The translations under genes and the position numbers were made by a program. Positions 3,697-63,238 of a DNA stretch of 64,000 nt are shown here, piece by piece. Numbering within the stretch: the first letter of the stretch is position 1; every line of letters begins with the position of its first letter. The DNA comes from Minisyncoccota bacterium (lineage in GTDB: Bacteria; Patescibacteriota; Minisyncoccia; Phycocordibacterales; PALSA-1337), in NCBI GenBank assembly GCA_036516895.1, contig DATDZD010000002.1, forward strand, positions 13,769-77,768. Reading direction: 5' to 3'. The notes beneath the pieces are model-generated. The model saw only the letters and a program-made list of their open reading frames with translations, did no database searches and was not told the origin of the DNA.

Positions 3697-5457
3697 CTAT
3701 TCAGATATGACACGAAGAACTTCTTCTATGGTAGTAAACCCTTGCACCGCTTTGAAAATACCATCTTCAATCATGGTCATCATTCCCTCTTCCTTTGCTT
3801 GCACTTCTATATCTTCTGATGTTCCTCCTTTTATAATGATATCTTTTATTGTCTGATTTACTTTTAGAACTTCATGAATTCCTATGCGACCCTTATAGCC
3901 ATCATCGTCTTTTCCGGCAACTGCTTTCCAAAAAGGAATTTTCTCCCAAGATTCTGTATTTTTGATGATTTTCTCTACTTTAAGCACTTGAAGGACACGA
4001 TCCAAATTAACAGACTTTGATAAAGACGCTATTTCCGGCTTTGACAGAAAATATTTTTCTTTATTTTCAGAGAGACGACGCACAAGCCGTTGGGCAATAA
4101 TGACATTTATAGTGGAAACTAGAAGGAATGGCTCTATTTTCATATCAATAAGTCGCGGTATGGCTCCAGCAGCGCTATTGGTATGTAGAGTAGAGAGAAC
4201 AAGATGACCCGTCAAAGATGCATTAACCGCTAATCCAGCAGTTTCATTATCACGAATCTCGCCAACCATGATAATATCAGGGTCTTGGCGAACCAATGTA
4301 CGCAAGCCGGAGGCAAATGTAAAGCCGATTTCGGGATTGACTTGCGTCTGATTTATACGCTTCATTTGATATTCTACAGGGTCCTCAATAGTGGAAATAT
4401 TAACATCTGGCTGGTTCAAAATATCAAGAATGGTATAGAGAGTTGTGGTTTTTCCAGAGCCAGTCGGGCCTGTGGTCAGTATCATTCCTGTAGTCTGTAT
4501 GACGGCGTTATGTATTCTTTCAAGTCCTTCTCCATGAAAAGCCAGATATTCCAGAGTGAACCCCGAAACATTTTCCCTAAGAAGACGCATGACTGTTTTT
4601 TCTCCATAATATGTGGGAAGAATAGAAACGCGAAAAGAAACTTTCTCATTATTCATATCCACCTTGAAACGACCATCCTGTGGGAGGCGTTTCTCATCAA
4701 GCTTAAGATTTGAAAGGACTTTTATGCGAGCGGTAATAGATGGTTCGGCATTTTTTGGCAAAATCATAGCATCATGTAGAAGACCATCTATGCGATAGCG
4801 AACCAAAAGTTCTTCTTCCATTGGTTCAATATGTATATCTGAAGCATTCTGCAAAATGGCGTGTTTAAGCAAAGTATCCACAATACGCACCACAGGCAAA
4901 TCTTCGGCTATTTTTTTTAAATCTTTCTCTGTTGTAGGATTTCCATTCTTTATGCCCGCTTCTTCCGCTATAGTCTTTAGCGTGGCTGATTCTTTTTGAA
5001 TCAAATCTCCAAATTCCGCCTTTAGACTCTTTTGATATTGAACAATTACATTTTTTATTGATTCTGTGTCGGTCAGACGAGGCAATATCTTCAGATTAAC
5101 TTTTTTTTTGACAAAATCAATAGCAGAGAGGTCATTGACTTCAAGCATTGCCACCTCCAAAGTATCATCTGTTTTCTTGAATGCTATAATATTGTGATTC
5201 CTAGCCACCGGTTCTGGAATCATAGACAATGTTTCAAAAGGAATCTTTCTTGACTTCAAATCAACAAAAGGAATGCCAAGAACATATGCCTGCATGCGAC
5301 GGAGATTGTCTTCTGTGATTTTTCCCGAGTTTACGAGAATCTCTCCCACCCCTGTCCCTTTTTTCTCGGCTTCTTTGAGAGCGTAATCAAAGTCAGTTCT
5401 AGAAACAAGATTAGAGTCAATAATAAATTTATTAAGTTGCGAGTCAAGGATGAGCAT
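3697..5457 (-). CDS. pilB: Type IV pilus assembly ATPase PilB (GspE family)
   Basis: Walker A TGPTGSGKTTTLY, Walker B and Asp/His boxes (DPDIIMVGEIRD, TGHLVLSTLHTNSA) are present. The N-terminal GSPII_E-like domain is also present. The likely start is the internal Met (MLILDSQ...) rather than the track start at 5547. Confidence 0.85.
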   Translation of the reverse strand: MLILDSQLNKFIIDSNLVSRTDFDYALKEAEKKGTGVGEILVNSGKITEDNLRRMQAYVLGIPFVDLKSRKIPFETLSMIPEPVARNHNIIAFKKTDDTLEVAMLEVNDLSAIDFVKKKVNLKILPRLTDTESIKNVIVQYQKSLKAEFGDLIQKESATLKTIAEEAGIKNGNPTTEKDLKKIAEDLPVVRIVDTLLKHAILQNASDIHIEPMEEELLVRYRIDGLLHDAMILPKNAEPSITARIKVLSNLKLDEKRLPQDGRFKVDMNNEKVSFRVSILPTYYGEKTVMRLLRENVSGFTLEYLAFHGEGLERIHNAVIQTTGMILTTGPTGSGKTTTLYTILDILNQPDVNISTIEDPVEYQMKRINQTQVNPEIGFTFASGLRTLVRQDPDIIMVGEIRDNETAGLAVNASLTGHLVLSTLHTNSAAGAIPRLIDMKIEPFLLVSTINVIIAQRLVRRLSENKEKYFLSKPEIASLSKSVNLDRVLQVLKVEKIIKNTESWEKIPFWKAVAGKDDDGYKGRIGIHEVLKVNQTIKDIIIKGGTSEDIEVQAKEEGMMTMIEDGIFKAVQGFTTIEEVLRVISE

Positions 5458-5696
5458 TGATATTATTATATCATGAGTATAAAAATAACCCCCAATTCGC
5501 CAAAGCTTTCGCCGAGACAAATCGAGGGTCAAACACTGACCATCCACTGTATCTTAAACACCAAGATTTTCTCTGGCGTGTTTATGCAGTTTTGTCAAGT
5601 CTAGCATTTTTGCTCCTCTCTGCTATACTTTCTACATCTGAAGTTCGCCTGCCGGCGAACATTTTTTATAAGAAATTACAAACTAAACACAAAACC

Positions 5697-12308: not shown

Positions 12309-12414
12309 TTATACACAGGTTTATCCACCGAGTTATAAACAGGTTACACACAGTTTATCCACTTATCCACATAAAGTTATCCACTTTTTGCAATATTATC
12401 CACAGTTATCCACA
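12309..12414 (+). promoter_or_regulatory. Array of about nine same-orientation DnaA-box-like 9-mers, three of them perfect TTATCCACA, spaced about 11 bp apart and followed by an AT-rich stretch immediately upstream of clpP
   Basis: Boxes start at about 12309, 12321, 12333, 12344, 12355, 12363, 12378, 12396 and 12406. The perfect copies are at 12363, 12396 and 12406. Confidence 0.5.
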
Positions 12415-14728: not shown

Positions 14729-14827
14729 GGTAAAATGGCTCGCCTGCTTGCGGTCGGAAGCACTTATTTTTGTCTCGCAAGCTCGAAAAAATAAGTCTTC
14801 CTCTCCGCAGCTCGCACGATTTTACTG
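14729..14827 (+). repeat. Intergenic imperfect-palindromic repeat, family copy A (about 99 bp) with conserved termini GGTAAAATGGCTCGC...GCTCGCACGATTTTAC
   Basis: Directly seen. It lies immediately downstream of the rny stop. There are nested inverted repeats (GCTTGCG/CGCAAGC and GGAAGCACTTATTTTT/AAAAAATAAGTCTTCC). It is homologous to the copies at 23562, 26795, 39388 and 43510. Confidence 0.6.
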
Positions 14828-17408: not shown

Positions 17409-17448
17409 TTATACACATTGTCCACAGACTTATCCACAGTTATACACA
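17409..17448 (+). promoter_or_regulatory. Second phased array of DnaA-box-like 9-mers (TTATACACA, TTGTCCACA, TTATCCACA perfect, TTATACACA) at about 10-11 bp spacing
   Basis: Directly seen between the yraN start (17396, minus strand) and the tRNA-Gly(GCC) 3' end (17491). All four boxes share one orientation. Confidence 0.45.
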
Positions 17449-21609: not shown

Positions 21610-22536
21610 CTACTTTCTTTTATTATGAAACTCCTTATGAATCTTCTTGAGTTGGCTATCGGTCACATGTGTATAAATTTGTGTCGTTCCTATATTTGCA
21701 TGTCCCAAAAGCATTTGGACAGAGCGGAGGTCTGCTCCATTTGATAATAAATCTGTCGCAAAAAGATGACGTAAAACATGAGGAGTCACTTTTTTTGAAA
21801 TACCAGCTTTTATGGCATGCTGTTTGACTATTCTCTCAATGGAACGACGAGAAAGAGCTGGCTCATTTCTCTCTGTGTTATTTTCCCTATCTCCCGTTTT
21901 TACGAAAAGAGCATCATTGATATCAGTTCTTCTATCTAAATATTTTTTTATTGCACTTTTAGCTTCTGTAGAAAGAAAAACTACTCTTATTTTTTCACCT
22001 TTACCTCTAATAGAGAGCTCGTCTAATTTCAAATCAATATCTCTAGACAGAGAACAAAGTTCCGAAACGCGCAAGCCAGTAGAAAATAGTAGCTCTAAAA
22101 TAGCTTTATCTCGCAATGCCTTCAAATCATTGCCATCTGAAGTATTGAGAAGTCGCTTCAGTTCATCAGAAGAAATAAGATCCAGGGCGCGCTCTCCTAC
22201 CTTTGCCAACTCTATATATTCTGGAGAAAGTGTTTTTATGCCTCTTTTTGCGATGTATTTGAGAAAAGCACGCAAGGCAATAAGATGATAATTCTGCGTT
22301 TTTTTCTTGAGAGTCTCTCCTGTAGCTCTATTGTTTCCTCCTGATTGTCTATTTAGCCATAGACGATAGTTGCGCACTATATTTTCAGTAATATCATTGG
22401 TATCTTTTATACAAGCATGGTCAATAAAACGGGTGAGATAGTGGTCATAATTTTCAACAGTTTTGACGGCTCGTCCTTTTTCTATTTCAATATATTCAAG
22501 AAATTCTTGCTTCAAGTCTTTAATATTGTGCGACAT
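21610..22536 (-). CDS. Tyrosine site-specific recombinase (XerC/XerD-like)
   Basis: The C-terminal catalytic region HVLRHLFATDLLSNGADLRSVQMLLGHANIGTTQIYTHV carries the R..HxxR..Y pattern. The start is chosen at the internal Met MSHNIKDL. Confidence 0.8.
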   Translation of the reverse strand: MSHNIKDLKQEFLEYIEIEKGRAVKTVENYDHYLTRFIDHACIKDTNDITENIVRNYRLWLNRQSGGNNRATGETLKKKTQNYHLIALRAFLKYIAKRGIKTLSPEYIELAKVGERALDLISSDELKRLLNTSDGNDLKALRDKAILELLFSTGLRVSELCSLSRDIDLKLDELSIRGKGEKIRVVFLSTEAKSAIKKYLDRRTDINDALFVKTGDRENNTERNEPALSRRSIERIVKQHAIKAGISKKVTPHVLRHLFATDLLSNGADLRSVQMLLGHANIGTTQIYTHVTDSQLKKIHKEFHNKRK

Positions 22537-22591
22537 GCTATTATTGTAACAAACTTGCAATATAAAGCTATTCGTGCTATTATCCTTCATC

Positions 22592-22858
22592 ATGCTGACA
22601 ACAAGACAGAAAGCGAATGTCATAAAAACATCTGCAATTCATGATAAAGACACGGGGTCTCCCGAGGTTCAAATTTCTATTTTGACAAGAAGGATTGAAG
22701 AATTGGCAGGACATTTGAAGAAACACAAGAAAGACAACCATTCAAGACGCGGACTTCTAGCTATGGTAGCAGATCGCCAAACCCACATGAATTATTTGAA
22801 GAAAAAGCATCCAAAACGCTATTCGTCTATTGCAAAAAAGCTTGACCTTAAAAAATAG
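22592..22858 (+). CDS. rpsO: 30S ribosomal protein S15
   Basis: MLTTRQKANVIKTSAIHDKDTGSPEVQISILTRRIEELAGHLKKHKKDNHSRRGLLAMVADR. The GSPEVQ and HSRRGLL motifs are diagnostic. Confidence 0.85.
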   Translation: MLTTRQKANVIKTSAIHDKDTGSPEVQISILTRRIEELAGHLKKHKKDNHSRRGLLAMVADRQTHMNYLKKKHPKRYSSIAKKLDLKK

Positions 22859-23557: not shown

Positions 23558-23561
23558 TAAA

Positions 23562-23659
23562 TAAAATCATGCGAGCATGCGGGGAGGAAACCCTATTTTT
23601 TCGAACCTGAGAGACAAAAATAAGTGCTTCCGACCGAAAGTAGGCGAGCTGATTTTACC
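23562..23659 (-). repeat. Intergenic palindromic repeat, family copy D in reverse orientation
   Basis: The reverse complement reads GGTAAAATCAGCTCGCCTACTTTCGGTCGGAAGCACTTATTTTTGTCTC...CCCCGCATGCTCGCATGATTTTAT. It lies between the NYN gene stop and the next gene start. Confidence 0.55.
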
Positions 23660-25145: not shown

Positions 25146-25200
25146 ATTTTATCAAAATTTTAAAACTTTTTTATCAGAATTTTATCTCGGTCTGCTAGAG
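25146..25200 (+). promoter_or_regulatory. Conserved roughly 55 bp motif (ATTTTATCAAAATTTTA...TTTATCTCGGTYTG.TA) upstream of comM, shared with the region upstream of the gene at 53580
   Basis: Two copies, at 25146-25200 and 53481-53535, align with about 40 of 52 identities. This includes an identical 17-mer and a 15/17 match over TTTATCTCGGT. Confidence 0.35.
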
Positions 25201-25207
25201 TGGGAGA

Positions 25208-26770
25208 ATGAGCGTATCAAAAACATATAGTGCACAACTTTCTGGTCTTAAGACTCATATAGTAACTATAGAAGTGGACCTTTCAAATGGTCTTCATGCT
25301 TTTGTCATAGTCGGACTTGGAGATAAAGCAGTTGAAGAAGCGAAAGACCGTATTTCAGCGGGAATAAAAAATAGTGGATATATTTCACCAAAACAAAAAA
25401 ATCAAAAGGTTGTAATATCTCTTGCTCCTGCCGACCTTAGAAAAGAAGGACCTTCTTTTGACCTTGGCATGGCTCTTTGTTATCTCAAAGCAAGTGGAGA
25501 TATTAATTTTGATGCTGAAAAGAAACTTTTTCTTGGAGAGCTTTCTCTTGAAGGTCAGTTGAGAAAAATAAGCGGAGTGCTTCCTCTAGTCAAAGGAGCT
25601 TATGAAAAAGGATTTAGAGAAATATTTCTTCCTAAAGAAAATGCAATGGAAGCTGGGTTAGTGAAGGGTGTGACCATATATGCTGTTTGTAGTCTAGATG
25701 AAACAATAGGACATCTTATAAATCGGAAAAATGGTTTTATCAAAGCGTATCCGCCAACAAAAATCCTATACGAAAAACAGTCTTTTGATACTGATTTCTC
25801 TTTTATCCAAGGACAAGAAACTGCCAAACGAGGTTTAGAGATAGCAGCGGCGGGCGGACACAATATCGCCATGTATGGACCGCCGGGAACTGGAAAAACA
25901 ATGCTTGCCAGAGCATTTCAGACCATATTGCCTCCATTGAACCATGAAGAAATCCTAGAGGTTACAAGCATACATTCACTGGCGCGTATCTTGGACAAGC
26001 CGTTTATAACTTATCCGCCGTTTAGGTCTCCACATCACACATCCTCATATGCATCTCTAGTGGGAGGAGGACCATTCCCCAAGCCAGGAGAAATAACTCT
26101 GGCTCACCGCGGAGTGCTTTTTCTTGATGAATTTCCAGAATTTGACAGAAACGCCATTGATGCTCTGCGCCAACCACTTGAAGACCATTTCATTACAATT
26201 TCTAGAATAAAAGGCGTCATAGCCTTTCCCGCTCAATGTATTCTAATAGCCAGTATGAATCCCTGTCCTTGCGGGTATGGAAAAGAAAAGGGATGTTTGT
26301 GTACAGACAAAGACATAACTCGTTATAGAAGAAAAATATCAGGACCTATTATTGACCGTATAGACTTATGGGTTTCTGTATCAAAGGTGGAATATCAAAA
26401 ACTTGCAGGTCCCTACAAAGATTCTTCAATTAGTCCTTCCAAAAATTCCACAGAATTAAGCCGTGATTCCGAATCAATAAGAAAAAGAGTTTTAATAGCT
26501 CGCAAATCTCAAAAAAGAAGATTCGTAAGTAAAAAAATAACTAACAAGAGAATAAATGGCGAAATGAGTGTTTCCGATATTGAAAAATGTATCACTTTGT
26601 CTATTGATATAAGAAATCTTCTTACCACTTCTGCAGAAAAATTGTCCTTATCGGGCAGAGCATTTCATCGTGTCATAAAAGTGTCTCGGACAATAGCGGA
26701 TTTGGAAGGTGATAAAGAAATTAAAAAAGAGCATATTTTAGAAGCACTTCAATACAGGCAGAAGTTCTAG
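25208..26770 (+). CDS. comM: YifB/ComM family Mg-chelatase-like AAA+ ATPase
   Basis: N-terminal Lon-like domain (THIVTIEVDLSNGLHAFVIVGLGD), Walker A GPPGTGKTMLA, Walker B LFLDEFPEF, and the C-terminal ChlI-like domain. Confidence 0.85.
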   Translation: MSVSKTYSAQLSGLKTHIVTIEVDLSNGLHAFVIVGLGDKAVEEAKDRISAGIKNSGYISPKQKNQKVVISLAPADLRKEGPSFDLGMALCYLKASGDINFDAEKKLFLGELSLEGQLRKISGVLPLVKGAYEKGFREIFLPKENAMEAGLVKGVTIYAVCSLDETIGHLINRKNGFIKAYPPTKILYEKQSFDTDFSFIQGQETAKRGLEIAAAGGHNIAMYGPPGTGKTMLARAFQTILPPLNHEEILEVTSIHSLARILDKPFITYPPFRSPHHTSSYASLVGGGPFPKPGEITLAHRGVLFLDEFPEFDRNAIDALRQPLEDHFITISRIKGVIAFPAQCILIASMNPCPCGYGKEKGCLCTDKDITRYRRKISGPIIDRIDLWVSVSKVEYQKLAGPYKDSSISPSKNSTELSRDSESIRKRVLIARKSQKRRFVSKKITNKRINGEMSVSDIEKCITLSIDIRNLLTTSAEKLSLSGRAFHRVIKVSRTIADLEGDKEIKKEHILEALQYRQKF

Positions 26771-26794
26771 TAAAATCGTAAAAAATATCATCTA

Positions 26795-26966
26795 GGTAAA
26801 ATCGGCTCGCTTACTTGCGGTCGGAAGCACTTATTTTTGTCTCGCAAGCTCAAAAAAATAAATCTTCCTCCTTACAGGAGCGGTACACCTTTCGCATTTG
26901 ATTACAAATGCTCAAGGTCTTGCGAAAGCTTCGCTTTCTCACCCCGCAAGCTCGCACGATTTTACT
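26795..26966 (+). repeat. Intergenic palindromic repeat, family copy B (about 172 bp, carries an internal insertion)
   Basis: GGTAAAATCGGCTCGCTTACTTGCGGTCGGAAGCACTTATTTTTGTCTCGCAAGCTC...CCCGCAAGCTCGCACGATTTTACTT. It lies between the convergent comM and M23 peptidase genes. Confidence 0.6.
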
Positions 26967-39387: not shown

Positions 39388-39567
39388 GTAAAATCGTGCG
39401 AACATCCGTATATATCAGGTGTGGAGAGAATACTTTCTTTTTCCGGGTACGAGAATTTTTTACTAAAAATTCTCTCAAGTCCTCGCGCCGACGCGCTCGG
39501 AAGCCCCTCCAAAAGAAGTATTCTCTCCACACCTAGCATACAATAAAGAATGCGAGTCAATTTTACC
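39388..39567 (-). repeat. Intergenic palindromic repeat, divergent family copy E (about 180 bp, reverse orientation)
   Basis: It starts GTAAAATCGTGCGA and ends GCGAGTCAATTTTACC. The internal part is itself a long palindrome (GGTGTGGAGAGAATACTTCTTTT ... AAAAGAAGTATTCTCTCCACACC). It lies directly after the VirB4 stop. Confidence 0.5.
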
Positions 39568-43509: not shown

Positions 43510-43617
43510 GGTAAAATCAGCTCGCCTACTTGCGCTCGGAAGCTCTTTTATTTGTTCTCCGCCTGCTGGCGGATAAAAATAAAAGACTTCCTCACCGCAG
43601 GCTCGCACGATTTTACT
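43510..43617 (+). repeat. Intergenic palindromic repeat, family copy C
   Basis: GGTAAAATCAGCTCGCCTACTTGCGCTCGGAAGCTC...CACCGCAGGCTCGCACGATTTTACT. It lies between convergent genes (the 42228 gene and yidC). Confidence 0.6.
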
Positions 43618-44851: not shown

Positions 44852-44992
44852 ATTTAGCAAGAATACATTATGATAGAAGAAAAGGCAAGGAGTACGAGTA
44901 AAATTTAGGCGAAATCCGTTCCGCAGAAGTCTTTTTTTCTGACGCTTGCCGGAAGAAAAAAAGAGCTTGTGCGGAAGCAAGGATTTCACCAA

Positions 44993-45152
44993 ATTTTACC
45001 TAGACATTATTTTAATTTATCTTGTAGTTTTATTTTTCCACAGGTTATCAACATACTTATAAACTTTCCACAAGTTCTTTACTTTTTAAAGAAGTATATA
45101 CTACTAATACTATTTTATTTATTTTTATCATCATCATAAAAATCTCATAAAA
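44993..45152 (+). promoter_or_regulatory. AT-rich dnaA upstream region with degenerate DnaA boxes (TTTTCCACA, TTATCAACA, TTTCCACAA), an oriC candidate part
   Basis: Directly seen. It lies between the divergent rpmH and dnaA genes and ends in a very AT-rich stretch before the dnaA ATG. Confidence 0.4.
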
Positions 45153-46499: not shown

Positions 46500-46716
46500 A
46501 TTGTGGATATTGTGTGGAAAGATACTGTATTTATGTGTATAACTTTAGATAAAAATATGATAAATAAAAAACTTATAGAAGATATTAGAAGTAATTCAAA
46601 AATTATCAACAATTTAATTATTAAAATATATTTAAAAATATCGGTTTAAAAAAGTTATCCACATATCCACAGGACTAATAATAGTAATAAGTATTAATAT
46701 AAATTAAATTAAAAAT
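46500..46716 (+). promoter_or_regulatory. dnaA-dnaN intergenic AT-rich region with tandem DnaA boxes (TTATCCACA perfect, ATATCCACA), an oriC candidate part
   Basis: The sequence aaaaGTTATCCACATATCCACAGGact sits within a 217 bp spacer of more than 80% A+T. Confidence 0.45.
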
Positions 46717-53480: not shown

Positions 53481-53535
53481 AATTTTATCAAAATTTTATT
53501 ATTTTTTCATTAAAACTTTATCTCGGTTTGATATG
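53481..53535 (+). promoter_or_regulatory. Second copy of the conserved upstream motif ATTTTATCAAAATTTTA...TTTATCTCGGTTTGATA, 45 bp before the gene at 53580
   Basis: See the alignment with 25146-25200. Confidence 0.35.
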
Positions 53536-55570: not shown

Positions 55571-56434
55571 TTATGGTTTTAATTTTTTTAGCACCTCTTT
55601 TATTTCTTCTTTTTGTTTTTTCTGTAGCTCTTTCATTTCTCTCTTGTGTCTCGCCGTCATCTTTTTTATATCCTCTGCAGATGGCAATGATTCTGGATAA
55701 ATGTTTGACTTAATCAACACCCCTCTGATGTTCCTATTATTTGTTACATGCTCATTAAGTATACTACCTTTTCCTTGTAGGTCTTTTCTTTTTGTATTTT
55801 CGGTAGTTATAGCTGTTGCAAATTCTTTTGCTGAGATTGTTACCTCTGGTAAAATGTCTGCAAGCGGTGCATTTTTCTTTGCACCAAGTCTCCTTTTCAT
55901 ATCTTCTGTTGTTTTTCCACCAAATAGTGCCTTGTCACCAAAGCTTCGTATTTCAGATATACCACGACCATCTACACCTCTACCGAATACTAATACGGCG
56001 AAAGCCTTTTCAGTAATGGTTAGCTTTTCTCTAGCGCTAATTCTCTTGAGTTCTGCTATTCTTTGTTCAATCATTTCCATCTTTCTGGTTTGTGTTACAA
56101 AATATGCTTGTGCAAAGGCAATTTCTGTTTTTCGAGGATCTCCATTAAGAGTAATTAGATAACAAGCGTATCTAGTCAGCTTAATATCTGGTATTTCTTG
56201 CTTCGTGTTTTTTCCAACAATTATTAGCTTCGTGACGTCACGAAAGTGATCCGCAACAGAACCCCTGGCATTTTTACAAGCTTCTTTTGCTCTCACGATA
56301 GCCGTCTCAAAGTTTTCCCAACGCAAATAACCCAATAAAGGATACAAATCTCGTGCATACCAATACTCTACGCCATTTTCACGACGGACATTATCAAAAG
56401 TTTTGTATAGAATTTGTAATTGAGTATTTTCCAT
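55571..56434 (-). CDS. DinD / Bro-N (KilA-N-like) domain protein
   Basis: The N-terminus NGVEYWYARDLYPLLGYLRWENFETAIVRAKEACK resembles Bro-N/DinD antirepressor-like domains, and a Lys-rich coiled-coil tail follows. The family call is from memory. Confidence 0.45.
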   Translation of the reverse strand: MENTQLQILYKTFDNVRRENGVEYWYARDLYPLLGYLRWENFETAIVRAKEACKNARGSVADHFRDVTKLIIVGKNTKQEIPDIKLTRYACYLITLNGDPRKTEIAFAQAYFVTQTRKMEMIEQRIAELKRISAREKLTITEKAFAVLVFGRGVDGRGISEIRSFGDKALFGGKTTEDMKRRLGAKKNAPLADILPEVTISAKEFATAITTENTKRKDLQGKGSILNEHVTNNRNIRGVLIKSNIYPESLPSAEDIKKMTARHKREMKELQKKQKEEIKEVLKKLKP

Positions 56435-56537
56435 TACTCAATTTTATCACTAGAAAATATTCTGTAAACTTATCAGAGAGAATTAGTTGTTCTGTAATTT
56501 TTTCTTAGGGTAATATAATGAATATATTTTTGTATTT

Positions 56538-57296
56538 TTACTTATTATTTTCCCAAATATAATCAAACATAATACGAAATGTCTCAGTGATGTATTTACT
56601 TTCAATTACCACAGTAACAATTGATTCTTTGAAGTTGGTAATAGCTACTTTATCTCCATAAATAATGATTTGAGCGGGAATGTTTAGTTTTTCTGTAGAG
56701 ACTTTCTTTCGAGTAATGAGGTATTTCTCATCTTCTCCAACTGGCATCACGGTTAGTTGTCCTTCGACATATGGAGTAATGGCTTTTGTTCGTATATTCT
56801 TTGCTGTTTGTTTTTCTATATGCTCTTTTGTCAGATTAAGAATCTCTGGTATGGCTTTATATATAGGAGCACTTATGATTAAAATATCTTGCCCAATATC
56901 GAGAATATCCCCATGTACTCTTTCAATGCCCTCCACTCCTTCATAAAATTGGATGTTCGGTTTACCTGAAAGAGCGTTAAACTCTGATGATAATATGCCG
57001 AATATGGTACTGAAGTCTGAAAAAGCGTGGTTAAGGTTCTGTCTATTTTTCTCAACCATTTCCTTAATATTCCTAGGATGTTTTGGCAAGAAAAGTGCGA
57101 TCTTGCCTATGTCATCTCGCTTCTCAACAAGATTTAGAGCTATGAGCTGGTCAATAATTTTATATGTAAGTGCTCTACCCACAGCTGTTTTTGAAGCTAT
57201 TGTTTTTGCCGAAGAGAAGCCATTGCTTAAAAGATAGGTATATATTTTTGCTTGTTCAAGACTAAGTCCGCATTCCACTAATATTTTTTCATTCAT
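56538..57296 (-). CDS. TrmB-like winged-helix transcriptional regulator
   Basis: The N-terminal HTH LSLEQAKIYTYLLSNGFSSAKTIASKTAVGRALTYKIIDQLIALNLVEK is typical of the TrmB family, and the C-terminal region is TrmB_C-like. Confidence 0.5.
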   Translation of the reverse strand: MNEKILVECGLSLEQAKIYTYLLSNGFSSAKTIASKTAVGRALTYKIIDQLIALNLVEKRDDIGKIALFLPKHPRNIKEMVEKNRQNLNHAFSDFSTIFGILSSEFNALSGKPNIQFYEGVEGIERVHGDILDIGQDILIISAPIYKAIPEILNLTKEHIEKQTAKNIRTKAITPYVEGQLTVMPVGEDEKYLITRKKVSTEKLNIPAQIIIYGDKVAITNFKESIVTVVIESKYITETFRIMFDYIWENNK

Positions 57297-57395
57297 TTTG
57301 TTATATTGTTATGACAATAATATGCTTATTTATCAAGGATACTATAGAAATCGTTATAATACAAGGATTAAAGTGTGGATAAGTGTTGTTATGTA

Positions 57396-57424
57396 TTGAC
57401 AAATCTGTTCAGTATGCTATGATT
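57396..57424 (+). promoter_or_regulatory. Candidate sigma-70-like promoter (TTGACA, 17 bp spacer, ATGATT) driving the GC-rich islet operon
   Basis: TTGACA is at 57396-57401 and ATGATT at 57419-57424, with the first islet ATG at 57434. A perfect DnaA box TGTGGATAA at 57374-57382 lies just upstream. Confidence 0.3.
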
Positions 57425-57433
57425 GTTTCAGAT

Positions 57434-57781
57434 ATGAAAACAACATACTTCGGTTTCGGGATCGCTCCCAGCATGTTTCCCTCGAATTGCACCATTCGTA
57501 AGCAGGAGCTTACGGTGGAGCAGGCAAAGGAAACCATCGCCGGGGGCGTGACCTCCTGCCTCAACCCTAGCCACAAGGCGAGCATTGAGGTGATGGAGAC
57601 GAGGTTCGGCATGAAGGTGGAGATACCGGCGAAAGCGCCGAGCGTCTCCCTCCAAGCTGGAGACCGCTTGGTGGTGATGGGGGTCAGGGGACTCCCCCGG
57701 TTGGAAAACCGGCACGAGTACACCCCCGAGGAGGTGGCAGGTGCGAAGTTCGACTTCGCGCTCTTCACGGTCGGGGAGTAA
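57434..57781 (+). CDS. DUF1874-like (STIV B116 / AcrIII-1 / Crn2 ring nuclease family) candidate; GC-rich foreign gene
   Basis: 115 aa from MKTTYFGFGIAPSMFPSN.... The pattern aromatic-xxx-S-x-M-F, a His at residue 47 (NPSHKAS), GDRLVVMGVRG and RLEN resemble the DUF1874 fold family as recalled from memory. Local GC is about 60% against about 33% for the host. The start follows the promoter at 57396. Confidence 0.4.
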   Translation: MKTTYFGFGIAPSMFPSNCTIRKQELTVEQAKETIAGGVTSCLNPSHKASIEVMETRFGMKVEIPAKAPSVSLQAGDRLVVMGVRGLPRLENRHEYTPEEVAGAKFDFALFTVGE

Positions 57782-57959
57782 TCTCGTAGGGTTGAAGATG
57801 AACCTAAAAACTTTCCTCTCCTGCAGAGTGTGCAGAGAACATGTGATGGTACAGCATATAAATGTATCCATAATGTGATTTGGGCAACCAAGTCCGACTC
57901 TGGGGAAGCTCCAGGGCGCCTGACAAGCGGAAACTGTTGGGATGATTCATTTCATCTCT

Positions 57960-58010
57960 TGCCTCTCGGAATGTATATTCCGACTGATGAGTCCGAAAGG
58001 ACGAAAGGCA
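57960..58010 (+). ncRNA. Hammerhead ribozyme, type III (HHR-1)
   Basis: UGCCU-C^-UCGGAAU-GUAU-AUUCCGA-CUGAUGA-GUCC-GAAA-GGAC-GAA-AGGCA. Stem III is UGCCU/AGGCA with A15.1-U16.1. The cleavage site is C17, after 57965. Stem I is a 7 bp hairpin. The CUGAUGA core is at 57984-57990. Stem II is GUCC/GGAC with a GAAA loop (G10.1-C11.1), followed by G12 A13 A14. All invariant core nucleotides are present. Confidence 0.75.
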
Positions 58011-58233
58011 GAATATCTTTGAATTTCCTTGTGAAAGCAAGTTTGTAAGATTAGAGAATTGAGTCTTGCAGTAAAAATAAAGGTGTCATACCAAATCATG
58101 CAAGTGAGGTGAGTATGAAAAAGAAAAGCTGAAAGTGCTTTCGACCTAACTTGGCCGAGATGAACAGCCCGGCCCATCATCCAGAGAGTGACCCTGCTAC
58201 GGTACGACAGTTCATTTTGACTGTCATACCGAA

Positions 58234-58446
58234 ATGGGATGGGTGCTTGCACCCATGTTCAAAATTTTCAGACCGATTCCTGCTAGTAAGGAATCGGTAA
58301 AGGATTTGCTCCGTAGCGTGATTGGTAACAATCAGCGTAAGGAGTGGTATAAATCCCGCTCAAGGACCACCATCCTTGAGCACTTCATTGAGTCCTTGAT
58401 TGAAAGATTATTGAGGATTCATAGAGTTTCAGTTTCAGTTTTTTAA
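58234..58446 (+). CDS. Small hypothetical ORF within the HHR-flanked unit
   Basis: 70 aa with no strong RBS and no recognisable family. It may be non-coding. Confidence 0.2.
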   Translation: MGWVLAPMFKIFRPIPASKESVKDLLRSVIGNNQRKEWYKSRSRTTILEHFIESLIERLLRIHRVSVSVF

Positions 58447-58474
58447 AAATTAAATAAAGAAAGGAGGTGAAAGG

Positions 58475-58834
58475 ATGCGAAGTTCGTGTCGGGAAGACGG
58501 GAGGCGCAATACCCTTGGTTATTTCAGAGGTGCTCGGGAATTTTTTCCTCAAGGCACCTTTAAGGAAATCGAGTTAGTTGTGGCTCTCGATCCAGTCTGG
58601 CATTCATCGGATGGAATCAGCGAGGTAGTCATGGCGATTGGGGCTGCAGAGCGTAAGCTCAATAGTCTCAAAGACCGAAAGGATTACCTGGTAAGATCCA
58701 TTGCCGATGATCAGAATTGGTGGCGTCCTTCCCCAGAAATGAAACAGCTATATAGACAAGAGCTTAAAACTCTTCGTCAAGAAGCTGTGAAATTTCAGAG
58801 GGAACTGGATGAACTCCAAGCCATTATTGGATGA
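58475..58834 (+). CDS. Hypothetical protein (islet ORF) with a strong Shine-Dalgarno sequence
   Basis: AAAGGAGGTGAAAGG sits immediately before the ATG, a context absent from host genes. 119 aa with a C-terminal coiled-coil-like region. Confidence 0.5.
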   Translation: MRSSCREDGRRNTLGYFRGAREFFPQGTFKEIELVVALDPVWHSSDGISEVVMAIGAAERKLNSLKDRKDYLVRSIADDQNWWRPSPEMKQLYRQELKTLRQEAVKFQRELDELQAIIG

Positions 58835-58972
58835 CCGCAGGAAAGACTGCCAAAGGATCACTCCAACCTTTGTAATAGAAGAGTGAAAAGTTCACCTGAA
58901 CAAGGATGAAACTTTTGTCACCGTCATAAAATGGTGAGTTGGGGTTGCAGACCCTGGGGATCGTAAGATTCT

Positions 58973-59027
58973 CTTCTGTCTCGGAATATGTATTCCGACT
59001 GATGAGCTCAAAAGAGCGAAACAGAAG
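58973..59027 (+). ncRNA. Hammerhead ribozyme, type III (HHR-2)
   Basis: CUUCUGU-C^-UCGGAAU-AUGU-AUUCCGA-CUGAUGA-GCUC-AAAA-GAGC-GAA-ACAGAAG. Stem III is 7 bp (CUUCUGU/ACAGAAG). The cleavage site is C17, after 58980. Stem I is identical to that of HHR-1. The CUGAUGA core is at 58999-59005 and stem II is GCUC/GAGC. Confidence 0.75.
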
Positions 59028-59073
59028 TTTTTATAAATATTTTTTAAATCAAAAAAAGAAAGGAGGTGAAAAA

Positions 59074-59406
59074 ATGAAAATCGTGCGTTTGGAGCCAGAG
59101 AAGATTCTCGAAGCGATTCGTATCGCAAGTGAGAGTTTTGGAACATTCCACTTTACTCATCTGCCGGAGAGGATCAGGGATGGTGTAGATGAGCTTGCAG
59201 AGGATTTTAGGCTATACTCGTTTTGGGAAAGTAGCGACTTTTGTTGCTGTTTTTCTCCAAAGTGGGCTGCTGAAGATGCCTCTGATAGGGGAATGGCGGT
59301 GGATTCCAAGGATCTCGCGAAAAGGAAGAAGGGATTCGCAAAAGTCTGCCAAATTTTTGGCTGTTCAGCTAAGGATGAGGTGGTTGGGATCCGTCCAATT
59401 CTTTGA
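59074..59406 (+). CDS. Hypothetical protein (islet ORF) with a strong Shine-Dalgarno sequence
   Basis: AAAGGAGGTGAAAAA sits before the ATG at 59074. 110 aa, MKIVRLEPEKILEAIRIASESFGTF.... No family recognised. Confidence 0.5.
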   Translation: MKIVRLEPEKILEAIRIASESFGTFHFTHLPERIRDGVDELAEDFRLYSFWESSDFCCCFSPKWAAEDASDRGMAVDSKDLAKRKKGFAKVCQIFGCSAKDEVVGIRPIL

Positions 59407-61419: not shown

Positions 61420-63090
61420 TTATTCCTCTATAGTAATAACTCTTTCAAGTTCATCTAGCGATGTAATTCCTTGTAAGACTTTTATTATACCATCTTGCGT
61501 CATAGTGAGAATTCCTTGAGCAGCTGCAGCTTTTGCTATTTCCGTATCACTTGAATTGTATTCAATCACTTTATTTACTTCTTCATTTAATTTCATTCCC
61601 TCATAAATACCTATACGACCTTTGTATCCTGTATTATTGCATTTTTCGCATCCTACATGACCGAAAACTGAAGGAGGCATGACCGGAATCTCTTTTTTAT
61701 CAACAATGGTAGCTAGTATCTCGTCTATTTTTCTTTTTATTTCTCCTTCTATTGCTATGGCTTTCTTGCAGAAAGGACATAGTTTGCGGATAAGTCGTTG
61801 GGCTAGGGCGATGTTTATTGCAGAACTCATGATTTTTGGATTGATACCGAGGTCAATCAGGCGAGGGAATGACCCAGCAGAGCTATTTGTATGTAATGTG
61901 GAGAAGACGAGATGTCCAGTAAGAGAAGAATTGATGGCTATAGAGGCAGTTTCTCCATCGCGTATTTCACCAACCATGATTATGTCTGGGTCTTGGCGCA
62001 ATGCGGAGCGCAGTCCCTCTAGAAAAGTATATCCTTTGTCATTGACTTGTGTTTGCACAATGCCAGGCAAATGATATTCAATAGGGTCTTCAATCGTAAT
62101 TATTTTCACACCGGGATTATGGACTTTTTTTAGAAAGGCGTACAATGTGGTGGTTTTTCCAGAACCAGTCGGACCTGTGGTGAGCAACATGCCATTTGGT
62201 TTTGTAATTTCTTTCTCCAGAATTGATAAAAGTTTTTTTGGAATACCCAGTTCTTCCATGGATATGGAAATAGTTTTTGGATTTAGAAGGCGCATGACTA
62301 TGGATTCATCATAAGCTCCAGGGAGAACAGATGTTCTTATTTCAATATTATCTTTGCCTATATGCACACTGAAACGACCGTCTTGGGCGTCTTTTTTGAT
62401 ATTTATCTTTAGTCCAGAAAGAAGTTTTATGCGTGAGAGTAGAAGATTATAAGTATCATGGTCAAAATTTAAGACATTCACAAGGACACCATCAAGACGA
62501 TATCTCAAACGGATATAATCTTCTTCTGGTTCTATATGGATATCAGAGGCCTCCACCGCCATTGCTCCAGCCAGTATTGTCTCCAAGATACGAGAAACTC
62601 TATAGCTTTTTTTCATAGCCAGAGTATTTTCCAGAATAGAGACTATTGCGGGCAATCCTTTTGCCTTTTCTATAATAGTGGCAATTTCCTCGCTTGATAT
62701 TTCAAGAGAACCGGCTTTTGTCTCATAAGCGAAAGATAAATCTTTGTACATTGACCATGCCTTTTCAAGGCTGGCTGTTGAAGATATGGCAAGAGTTATT
62801 TCGTATCCCTTTTTCTTTATATCTAAAAGAGTTTCTTGAATTTTTTGGTCTTCAGGATTTCTAACTGCAATTTTAAGTCTTTTGTCTGCCAGAGCATAGC
62901 CCGCCATTTTCATTTCTCGGGCATTTTTTTCATCAATCAATCGCAAAGCGTCGGCACTGATGGATACAACAGTCAGGTCAACATATTCTATGCCATATTT
63001 TGCTGATAAGAATTGCACTAGCTCCTCCTCTTCTTGTTTGAGAAGGTCTCCTATTTTTCTATTTTGTTTATCTTCATCAAACTGAATCAT
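61420..63090 (-). CDS. Second GspE/PilB-family secretion ATPase with a tetracysteine zinc finger
   Basis: Walker A LTTGPTGSGKTTTLY, the box MVGEIRDGETA, TGHLVFSTLHTNS, and a C-terminal CPFCKK...CEKCNNTGYKGR motif. The start is taken at MIQFDED (ATG 63090), not the track start. Confidence 0.8.
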   Translation of the reverse strand: MIQFDEDKQNRKIGDLLKQEEEELVQFLSAKYGIEYVDLTVVSISADALRLIDEKNAREMKMAGYALADKRLKIAVRNPEDQKIQETLLDIKKKGYEITLAISSTASLEKAWSMYKDLSFAYETKAGSLEISSEEIATIIEKAKGLPAIVSILENTLAMKKSYRVSRILETILAGAMAVEASDIHIEPEEDYIRLRYRLDGVLVNVLNFDHDTYNLLLSRIKLLSGLKINIKKDAQDGRFSVHIGKDNIEIRTSVLPGAYDESIVMRLLNPKTISISMEELGIPKKLLSILEKEITKPNGMLLTTGPTGSGKTTTLYAFLKKVHNPGVKIITIEDPIEYHLPGIVQTQVNDKGYTFLEGLRSALRQDPDIIMVGEIRDGETASIAINSSLTGHLVFSTLHTNSSAGSFPRLIDLGINPKIMSSAINIALAQRLIRKLCPFCKKAIAIEGEIKRKIDEILATIVDKKEIPVMPPSVFGHVGCEKCNNTGYKGRIGIYEGMKLNEEVNKVIEYNSSDTEIAKAAAAQGILTMTQDGIIKVLQGITSLDELERVITIEE

Positions 63091-63157
63091 TATGCTATAA
63101 GTATACCTTATATTGTTTTTCTGTTGTAATCTATGGTGGGTGGTGTAAGATTTCATA

Positions 63158-63238
63158 TAAATGGCTCGGAAGTACTTTTTCTGAACCTGAACGCATTCGT
63201 CAGGGAAGGTGAAGGAAAAGTACTTCCGAGCCATTTAG
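63158..63238 (+). repeat. Perfect 21 bp-arm palindrome AAATGGCTCGGAAGTACTTTT...AAAAGTACTTCCGAGCCATTT, possibly a minimal member of the intergenic repeat family
   Basis: Directly seen. It shares AAATGGCTCG and GCTCGGAAG with repeat copies A and C. It lies between the divergent PilB-like gene and tRNA-Thr. Confidence 0.45.

Follow-up and report, generated by a model that had tools for sequence, protein, structure and literature searches.

What kind of element is the hairpin-forming repeat that lies between the genes for RNase Y and HU at 14729-14826, and that recurs throughout the window (the whole 64-kb stretch of DNA analysed here)? An earlier note on this stretch had likened it to MITE, REP, Correia or ERIC elements. 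A dispersed repeat of that kind is supported by what we find, namely lineage-specific insertions, one polymorphic site, and copies in many intergenic regions of housekeeping genes. We put at roughly 70% the probability that the family is small, non-coding, non-autonomous mobile hairpin DNA, a fold-back repeat of the MITE/ERIC/Correia/REPIN kind.

Copies of the repeat in the window

The window contains six hairpin-forming copies of about 100-180 nt, named A (start 14729), B (23560), C (26795), D (39388), E (43510) and G (44897), with the letter F kept for a hairpin at 63158; together they occupy 763 nt, or 1.2% of the window. The earlier note had counted five copies, possibly six. Reading its intervals directly, we find all five present, whereas the suspected sixth at 63158 is not supported as a member, and the true sixth is copy G, which came to light when related metagenome contigs were compared with the window by BLAST. 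With a covariance model derived from 16 copies and run unfiltered over the whole window, A, B, E and G reach 87-102 bits and C reaches 52-67 bits. Moreover, with at most three mismatches allowed, the window has five occurrences of the 3' motif CTCGCACGATTTTAC against 1.1 expected, and none of 100 shuffles reaches five.

Copy A (14729-14826, plus strand) is a type 1 copy (for the types, see the next section) of 98 nt (95 bits, MFE -35.6, z -4.8) between rny (stop 14712) and the HU gene (start 14961), and is sense to both. Copy B (23560-23659, minus strand) is the most diverged of type 1 (94 bits, z -2.3); it lies 3 nt past the stop of the NYN gene and 11 nt ahead of the next start, antisense to both genes. 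Copy C (26795-26966, plus strand), in the spacer between the convergent comM-like and M23 genes, is a type 1 copy in which about 72 nt have been added between the 3' arms of P3 and P2; this insert has no second occurrence in the sequence searched. A solo terminus fragment, CTAGTAAAATCG (26767-26778, plus strand), of the 3'-end type and inverted, is found 16 nt upstream of copy C and overlaps the comM stop codon. Copy D (39388-39567, minus strand, 180 nt) has type-4-like termini, GGTAAAATTGACTCGCATTC...GGATGTTCGCACGATTTTAC, around a different core, a 144-nt hairpin that is unique in the sequence searched. Its membership rests on these termini, which are similar to those of the L046b subfamily (L numbers denote metagenome contigs), and the covariance model sees the inner hairpin only (E=0.27). 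Copy D fills the spacer between the VirB4-like gene and the next gene. Copy E (43510-43617, plus strand; type 2, 108 nt, 102 bits, z -7.2) lies between the convergent 42228 gene and yidC. Copy G (44897-45000, minus strand; type 4, 104 nt, 87 bits, MFE -48.2, z -8.9) occupies the rpmH-dnaA intergenic region, identified by gene order and DnaA homology, between a DnaA-box-like block and the rpmH promoter, and its basal stem is fully paired via compensatory changes.

The gene names given in the earlier note (RNase Y, NYN, ComM-like, M23, VirB4-like, YidC) are borne out, as is the variable interior it described, with an insertion in one copy and a different core in another; these are our copies C and D, which it called B and E. 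It also placed every copy within a few bp of a stop codon. This is true of A-E (0-24 nt) and untrue of G and of the copies on L052 and L044, which sit between divergent genes.

Hairpin F (63158-63238, plus strand) is near-perfect, with 31-bp arms and a z-score of -9.6, and lies directly before tRNA-Thr. It shares no more than 15 nt (GCTCGGAAG.ACTTTT) with any copy, this being also its best BLAST stretch, and scores E=2.9-8.6 with the covariance model and E=0.8 with nhmmer. Because the shared stretch is so short and the model E-value so high, it is not counted as a family member. The T2SSE ORF that overlaps it (61420-63234) is 40-48 codons longer than its orthologues, so that hairpin F is probably intergenic. 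This ORF and the one at 3697-5547 are paralogous PilB-like T2SSE ATPase genes (repeat D1, 73% identical over 146 nt).

Hairpin structure and subfamilies

Every copy forms one long imperfect hairpin that folds on either strand, with energies of -26 to -78 kcal/mol and z-scores against shuffles of -2.3 to -8.9. The conserved module is the basal stem, with about 20-25 nt per arm, and the apical hairpin module is exchangeable and defines the subfamilies. The element begins with (GTCTAG)GGTAAAATCGGCTCGC and ends with GCTCGCACGATTTTACT; its terminal inverted repeats are RGTAAAATCG and CGATTTTACT, and the whole element is an imperfect palindrome. The earlier note had taken the shared termini to be reverse complements of each other, which holds for GTAAAATC and GATTTTAC. 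The GCTCGC blocks, in contrast, are direct repeats on the two arms, and pair as GC..GC around a 2x2 TC/TC mismatch, beside a bulged A on the 3' arm.

Type 1 comprises A, B, C and the copies on L045, L049 and L052; type 2 comprises E, L044a, L046a, L047a and L048; type 3 is L050; and type 4 comprises G, L046b and L068 together with the more distant L047b and L044b. The basal stem differs in sequence between the subfamilies with its pairing kept, and compensatory changes are visible by eye. Terminal pair 3 is T-A, G-C or C-G depending on the subfamily, and the mismatched GCTCGC/GCTCGC is swapped in other subfamilies for the fully paired GGTGAA/TTCGCC, GGACAA/TTGTCT or GACGAA/TTCGTC. In a model-based alignment of 17 copies, standard pairs make up 96.4% of cells versus 84.1% in column shuffles, a level reached by none of 500 shuffles, and both-sided changes are found in 14 of the 28 pairs; these statistics are generous, because the copies share ancestry and the alignment was made to fit the structure. 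As a control, sliding the partners by 1-3 columns lowers the pairing to 51% or less. From these comparisons we conclude that the hairpin is under constraint.

Distribution and genomic contexts

Overall, 18 complete copies are known, 17 recovered by the model (E<1e-6, 272 kb searched) and D by its termini. A search of metagenomes for the two-terminus pattern returned nine contigs from Rifle-type JGI samples and Hainich groundwater, one of which (L051) is the window itself and eight of which are new contexts; nhmmer and the covariance model add three copies (L044b, L047b and L068). Eleven further complete copies are found on other metagenome contigs, all between housekeeping genes and in both orientations, and the similarity is not restricted to this contig, an outcome that the earlier note had named as one that would count against a repeat family. 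Nor do the elements correspond to a known ncRNA family: searches of Rfam in gathering and E-value modes gave miRNA-hairpin noise of at most 22 bits, against thresholds of at least 57. In the GTDB representatives (185,579 species with one genome each, the source genome being absent), the two-terminus pattern gave two chance matches only. A 16-mer terminus matched 41 times in viral contigs, always in coding sequence and never with a 5' partner, and phage and plasmid collections yielded no family match. The covariance model found zero copies over about 140 kb of relatives' loci. As for the host, the DnaA of the window has the same sequence as a protein assigned by NCBI to a 'Candidatus Paceibacterota' MAG.

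All flanking genes examined are housekeeping or unannotated. In the window they are RNase Y/HU, NYN, ComM/M23, VirB4-like, YidC and rpmH/dnaA; on the other contigs, those named by Pfam are MurB, TatD/S6, EF-P/RecA, RseP, L10/L12, MurG, DnaJ/TrpRS, L9/L27, GreA and Mur ligase/sigma-70. Convergent, co-directional and divergent spacers are occupied alike, and relative to co-directional neighbours about five copies are sense and about seven antisense. The placement of the copies is neutral with respect to orientation and spacer type.

Insertion, loss and spread

To judge whether the copies are insertions, we compared the window with five syntenic relatives (DnaA 83-88% identical, same gene order). 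All five lack an element at sites D and E: where the window has spacers of 185 and 136 nt, the relatives have 0-10 nt or overlapping genes (5-10 nt or overlap at D, 0-9 nt or overlap at E). Site G is likewise empty in the three relatives checked (on four contigs), the window having about 120 extra bases that hold copy G. Judged by these alignments, the copies are lineage-specific insertions. At a finer scale, contig L050 from Hainich well H43 has exactly 114 extra nt, its copy of the element, relative to L062, L063 and L064, whose flanks align with it base for base and whose DnaJ is 99% identical. This filled/empty pair shows that copies are gained or lost between near-identical strains.

The copies themselves are often much alike. 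Those on L045 and L049 are 100% identical at different loci, and type-2 copies from Hainich (Germany) and from Rifle-type contigs (Colorado) are 97-99% identical. On the same Hainich contig, greA has 79% DNA identity to its best non-identical protein-database match, which lies on a Rifle-type contig, and 2-3 kb of syntenic genes are 77-82% identical. The spread of the family looks recent or horizontal, within one or a few Paceibacteria lineages in aquifers; the high identity of the copies could in principle come from selection instead of recent movement. Furthermore, C, L068, L047b and L044b have terminal fragments of other copies next to them; the copies therefore cluster, nest and decay.

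Effects on transcripts and the regulatory alternatives

An inserted copy would be co-transcribed with its neighbours in either orientation and would add a very stable stem-loop to the transcript, which could serve as a 3'-end barrier or as an RNase processing site. Correia and ERIC elements are targets of RNase III or RNase E (PMC10969869), and comparable effects here, by RNase III/RNase E processing or by the creation of promoters, are plausible. On the mobile-element reading, such an effect would be a by-product and not the cause of the family's existence.

The reverse could be argued, i.e., that the repeat is a regulatory hairpin selected by the host as a factor-independent terminator working in both directions, as a stabiliser of 3' ends or as a site for RNase Y/III, with mobility incidental. 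A stop codon is only 0-24 nt away in five of the six window copies, either strand gives a very stable hairpin, the stem is flanked by AAAA and UUUU as in bidirectional terminators, and the Correia/ERIC precedent just cited speaks for such a role. However, the same gene order is found in relatives that lack the element, with spacers of 0-10 nt, and a near-identical strain lacks the copy at the DnaJ locus; moreover, G, L052 and L044 lie between divergent genes and L047b within the rplJ-rplL operon. A consensus terminator scan over 14-28 kb, which covers A, B and C only, flagged none of them. In all copies the U-run is 4 nt long and base-paired inside the stem, as against at least five U in the eight nt directly after the G+C-rich stem of an intrinsic terminator, and the copies do not look like canonical terminators. 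We regard host selection for regulation as quite improbable.

A multi-copy family of small-RNA genes was also considered. Each copy would have its own promoter, with transcription starting at the GG of GGUAAAAUC, and would yield an RNA hairpin some 100 nt long, its 5' and 3' ends paired, that works in trans or serves as a decoy for a protein. In copies from four subfamilies (A, G, L048 and L068) the 5' GG is preceded, at a distance of exactly 8 nt, by a TAWAAT hexamer, and similar hexamers are found in C and E; directly ahead of the 5' end GTCTAG is conserved, with no such constraint on the 3' flank. No such hexamer is seen in B, D, L045, L050 and L052, though, there is no -35 element, and the hexamer of L068 and C belongs to a terminus fragment of another copy. 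In the scan of 14-28 kb, which was uninformative on canonical terminators and promoters, promoter-like sites occur at the frequency of shuffled sequence. The pairs covary and the covariance model gives 102 bits on the given strand against 29 on the opposite one, but the two strands fold equally well, and the excess of G.T over A.C pairs on the named strand (18 versus 4) falls to 6 versus 4 without one inherited terminal pair, which supplies 12 of the 18 and so gives no evidence on the acting strand. With no terminator after the element, no match in Rfam, and an apical part that is freely exchanged (C, D), a small-RNA family seems distinctly unlikely, and small mobile hairpin DNA remains the reading that we prefer.

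Mechanism of movement

If the family is mobile hairpin DNA, it would move by means of an enzyme supplied in trans and encoded elsewhere in the genome. No Pfam transposase was found in the window ORFs scanned, the ORFs flanking copies or the relatives' gene calls (about 0.3 Mb in total), no pair of termini encloses an ORF in the same amount of sequence searched for an autonomous partner, and no HUH or RAYT gene was seen in the 64-kb window and the scattered contigs. Only one recombinase was detected in the window, a tyrosine recombinase of Xer type (21610-22623, minus strand), 0.9 kb from copy B. It scores 246 bits with the XerD and 230 bits with the XerC model, both below cut-offs, passes the XerA/'integron integrase' model NF040815, and scores 131 bits with the integron integrase model, for which the cut-off is 265.

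The ends of the element are asymmetric, as (GT)CTAG precedes the 5' end in several subfamilies and only a T follows the 3' end. The earlier note had proposed a check for target-site duplications, and no consistent duplication emerges. The 2-nt flanks match in 8 of 16 copies (TA in five, TT in three), where about five matches are expected. Duplications of 2, 3 or 4 nt and CTAG targets in the style of IS630/IS5 were each tried as a model; none suits most copies, and the 4-nt models fail. It is probable that the enzyme in trans would read the folded, paired base of the element and not a strict terminal sequence, because the termini change with pairing kept, the ends are asymmetric and no regular target duplication is present.

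The filled/empty pair at the L050 site offers a closer view of a junction. The empty allele reads GGACTATAGTAA|AATCATTG and the filled one GGACTCTAGTAAAATC[...]CCTAGAATCACTG, with a 4-nt AATC repeat on both sides, or alternatively TA plus a 3-nt indel. Since AATC stands on both sides, the pair can be read as a 4-nt duplication, as a flush insertion 3' of AGTAA, or as a loss by slippage. The empty allele also contains TAGTAAAATC, which includes the terminal 8-mer GTAAAATC, and may for that reason be a deletion product instead of a naive site. About 0.8 occurrences of this 8-mer are expected per 11.7 kb, and in 129 kb of element-free relatives it is observed 10 times where about seven are expected. 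A native signal was rejected as the explanation, the 8-mer not being enriched in those relatives. Its presence in the empty allele, unexpected by chance, points to a terminus-like target or to a footprint. IS200/IS605-style insertion 3' of AGTAA suits the filled/empty pair and was also rejected, for it needs a variable right end and the orientation bias is absent. In fact, the six window copies alternate in orientation, which lends no support to single-strand insertion biased by replication strand. GC skew over the 64 kb was uninformative on origin placement and replication-strand bias.

Could the hairpin itself be the substrate of recombination, as a folded single strand of the attC, CTX-phage attP or REP/RAYT-like kind moved by a structure-specific recombinase? 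The enzyme would be the Xer-like recombinase at 21610-22623, whose gene lies close to copy B, or an unseen HUH enzyme. Such a substrate would account for subfamilies that conserve structure and not sequence, for the conserved bulge and mismatch on one arm, for an apical part variable in length and sequence, for asymmetric ends with a conserved 5' CTAG and no regular duplication, and for the terminus-like 8-mer at the empty site. On the other hand, the recombinase resembles an ordinary single-copy Xer, with only the XerA model passed, the end motifs are opposite in arrangement to the attC R''/R', no cassette genes travel with the hairpin in the filled/empty pair, no HUH gene is seen, and the six copies have no orientation bias. 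We consider this alternative rather unlikely.

A bolder reading can be formulated, in which a hairpin specified by its structure would move as folded ssDNA. A host enzyme, either the Xer-type tyrosine recombinase or an HUH nuclease, would cut and join at the stem base, and the targets would be mimics of the element terminus (AGTAA^AATC), often overlapping stop codons. This reading is tentative and, on the present evidence, rather unlikely. If true, it would amount to attC/CTX-phi-like recombination outside integrons in streamlined CPR genomes, spreading between species.

Other small repeats and motifs

Several further features were noted in the window and on the related contigs. Paired DnaA-box motifs (TTATCCACA) occur at 12345-12371, 17412-17438 and 46645-46671; only the last lies between dnaA and dnaN, the others being upstream of clpP and near a tRNA cluster. 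An AT-rich intergenic repeat of 52 nt (ATTTTATCAAAATTTTA...TTTATCTCGGTYTG) is present at 25146-25197 and 53482-53533, upstream of comM and of the 53580 gene, and at 5006-5064 of L046, with 83-89% identity, and may be a promoter or operator motif. A 36-nt stretch (..GGGAACTGGGCCAAAAGCCCGG..) beside an element copy is 100% identical between positions 1149-1184 of L044, a German contig, and 4666-4701 of L052, a Rifle-type contig; it is perhaps another small repeat, or else a terminator.

Two type III hammerhead ribozyme motifs (58973-59027 and 57958-58012, both on the plus strand) score 49.4 bits, above the gathering score, and 42.2 bits (E=1.8e-7). One is about 460 nt upstream of a small function-unassigned ORF (58475-58834), and the other overlaps the 5' part of a mechanical TTG ORF (58939-59406); the two ORFs have a near-identical ribosome-binding region (repeat D13). 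Both motifs lie in an island of about 4 kb (55571-59406) with Bro-N and TrmB-like genes, between the YebC and RuvB genes, which are adjacent in relative L060.

Significance of the family

The genomes of CPR/Patescibacteria are small and tightly packed, and this family expands spacers that measure 0-10 nt in relatives; one insertion is within the rplJ-rplL operon and another next to the replication origin. The earlier note considered repeat families of this kind poorly described in CPR genomes, and our literature search found no account of any. Near-identical copies across continents, in genomes whose housekeeping genes differ by about 20%, point to recent DNA exchange among episymbiotic bacteria. 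The family also breaks metagenome assemblies at its copies and is a likely cause of MAG fragmentation. Among the rny contigs L053-L056, three of four independent assemblies of the window's strain end at most about 310 nt downstream of rny, L055 inside copy A, and repeat-induced contig breaks at copy A may contribute to these ends. The copies could be used as strain-typing markers, and as natural insertions for testing the effects of stable hairpins on transcription in unculturable organisms.

Comparison with known repeat systems

The small size (98-180 nt, where MITEs stay under about 500 bp), non-coding nature, copy number, terminal inverted repeats and presence/absence polymorphism of the family are those of a MITE; a cognate autonomous IS with the same termini was not found in about 0.3 Mb. 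A MITE in the strict sense would also show a target-site duplication of fixed length, for which the flanks described above give no consistent sign. Other parallels are ERIC/IRU of enterobacteria and YPAL of Yersinia, which are likewise imperfect palindromes of about 70-130 nt, intergenic only and in both orientations, and which have larger forms produced by internal insertions at fixed points, as in copy C. In contrast to them, the present family lies in a different phylum, has no sequence similarity to them, consists of copies much more alike (95-100%), and has an exchangeable apical module and a conserved 5' CTAG. ERIC-type elements are also known as co-transcribed hairpins that alter the fate of the mRNA (PMC10969869).

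In the case of integron attC sites, the likeness lies in an imperfectly paired hairpin whose ends are conserved, whose length and top vary, and which has unpaired bases and a position just past a stop codon. An attC site is defined by 5' RYYYAAC ... GTTRRRY 3' cores and is accompanied by an integron integrase and cassette arrays. Identity with attC was rejected, since the ends here, GTAAAAT...ATTTTAC, have the reverse arrangement, the only recombinase is Xer-like and the neighbours are core genes; there is no integrase or cassette array, the core genes are in conserved order, and the hairpin moves alone.

REP/REPIN-RAYT systems share with the family hairpin-forming intergenic repeats in which structure is important, asymmetric ends, the lack of target duplication, and clusters. 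A REPIN pairs two REP palindromes of 20-40 nt as an inverted doublet, with a 5' motif of the GTAG type on each, and comes with a RAYT gene. Here a single continuous hairpin is found whose arms are not self-palindromic, and no RAYT is seen in the sequence searched; a REP/REPIN doublet was rejected on account of the continuous hairpin and non-palindromic arms.

In Correia elements the terminal repeats measure 26 bp, the TA duplication is regular and an IHF site is present, whereas the strict terminal repeat here is about 10 nt and TA duplication is irregular. The Correia elements of Neisseria (CREE/NEMIS) are short fold-back repeats that make up about 1-2% of the DNA, fall into subtypes and insert near genes; their terminal repeats pair in RNA, and sigma-70-like hexamers stand at their ends (PMC10969869). 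A Correia-like feature here is the TAAAAT in each terminus. Taken together, these comparisons indicate that the family, while sharing no sequence with ERIC, Correia or REPIN-type elements, behaves like these intergenic fold-back repeats: the sequence family is new, and the kind of small mobile repeat is already familiar.
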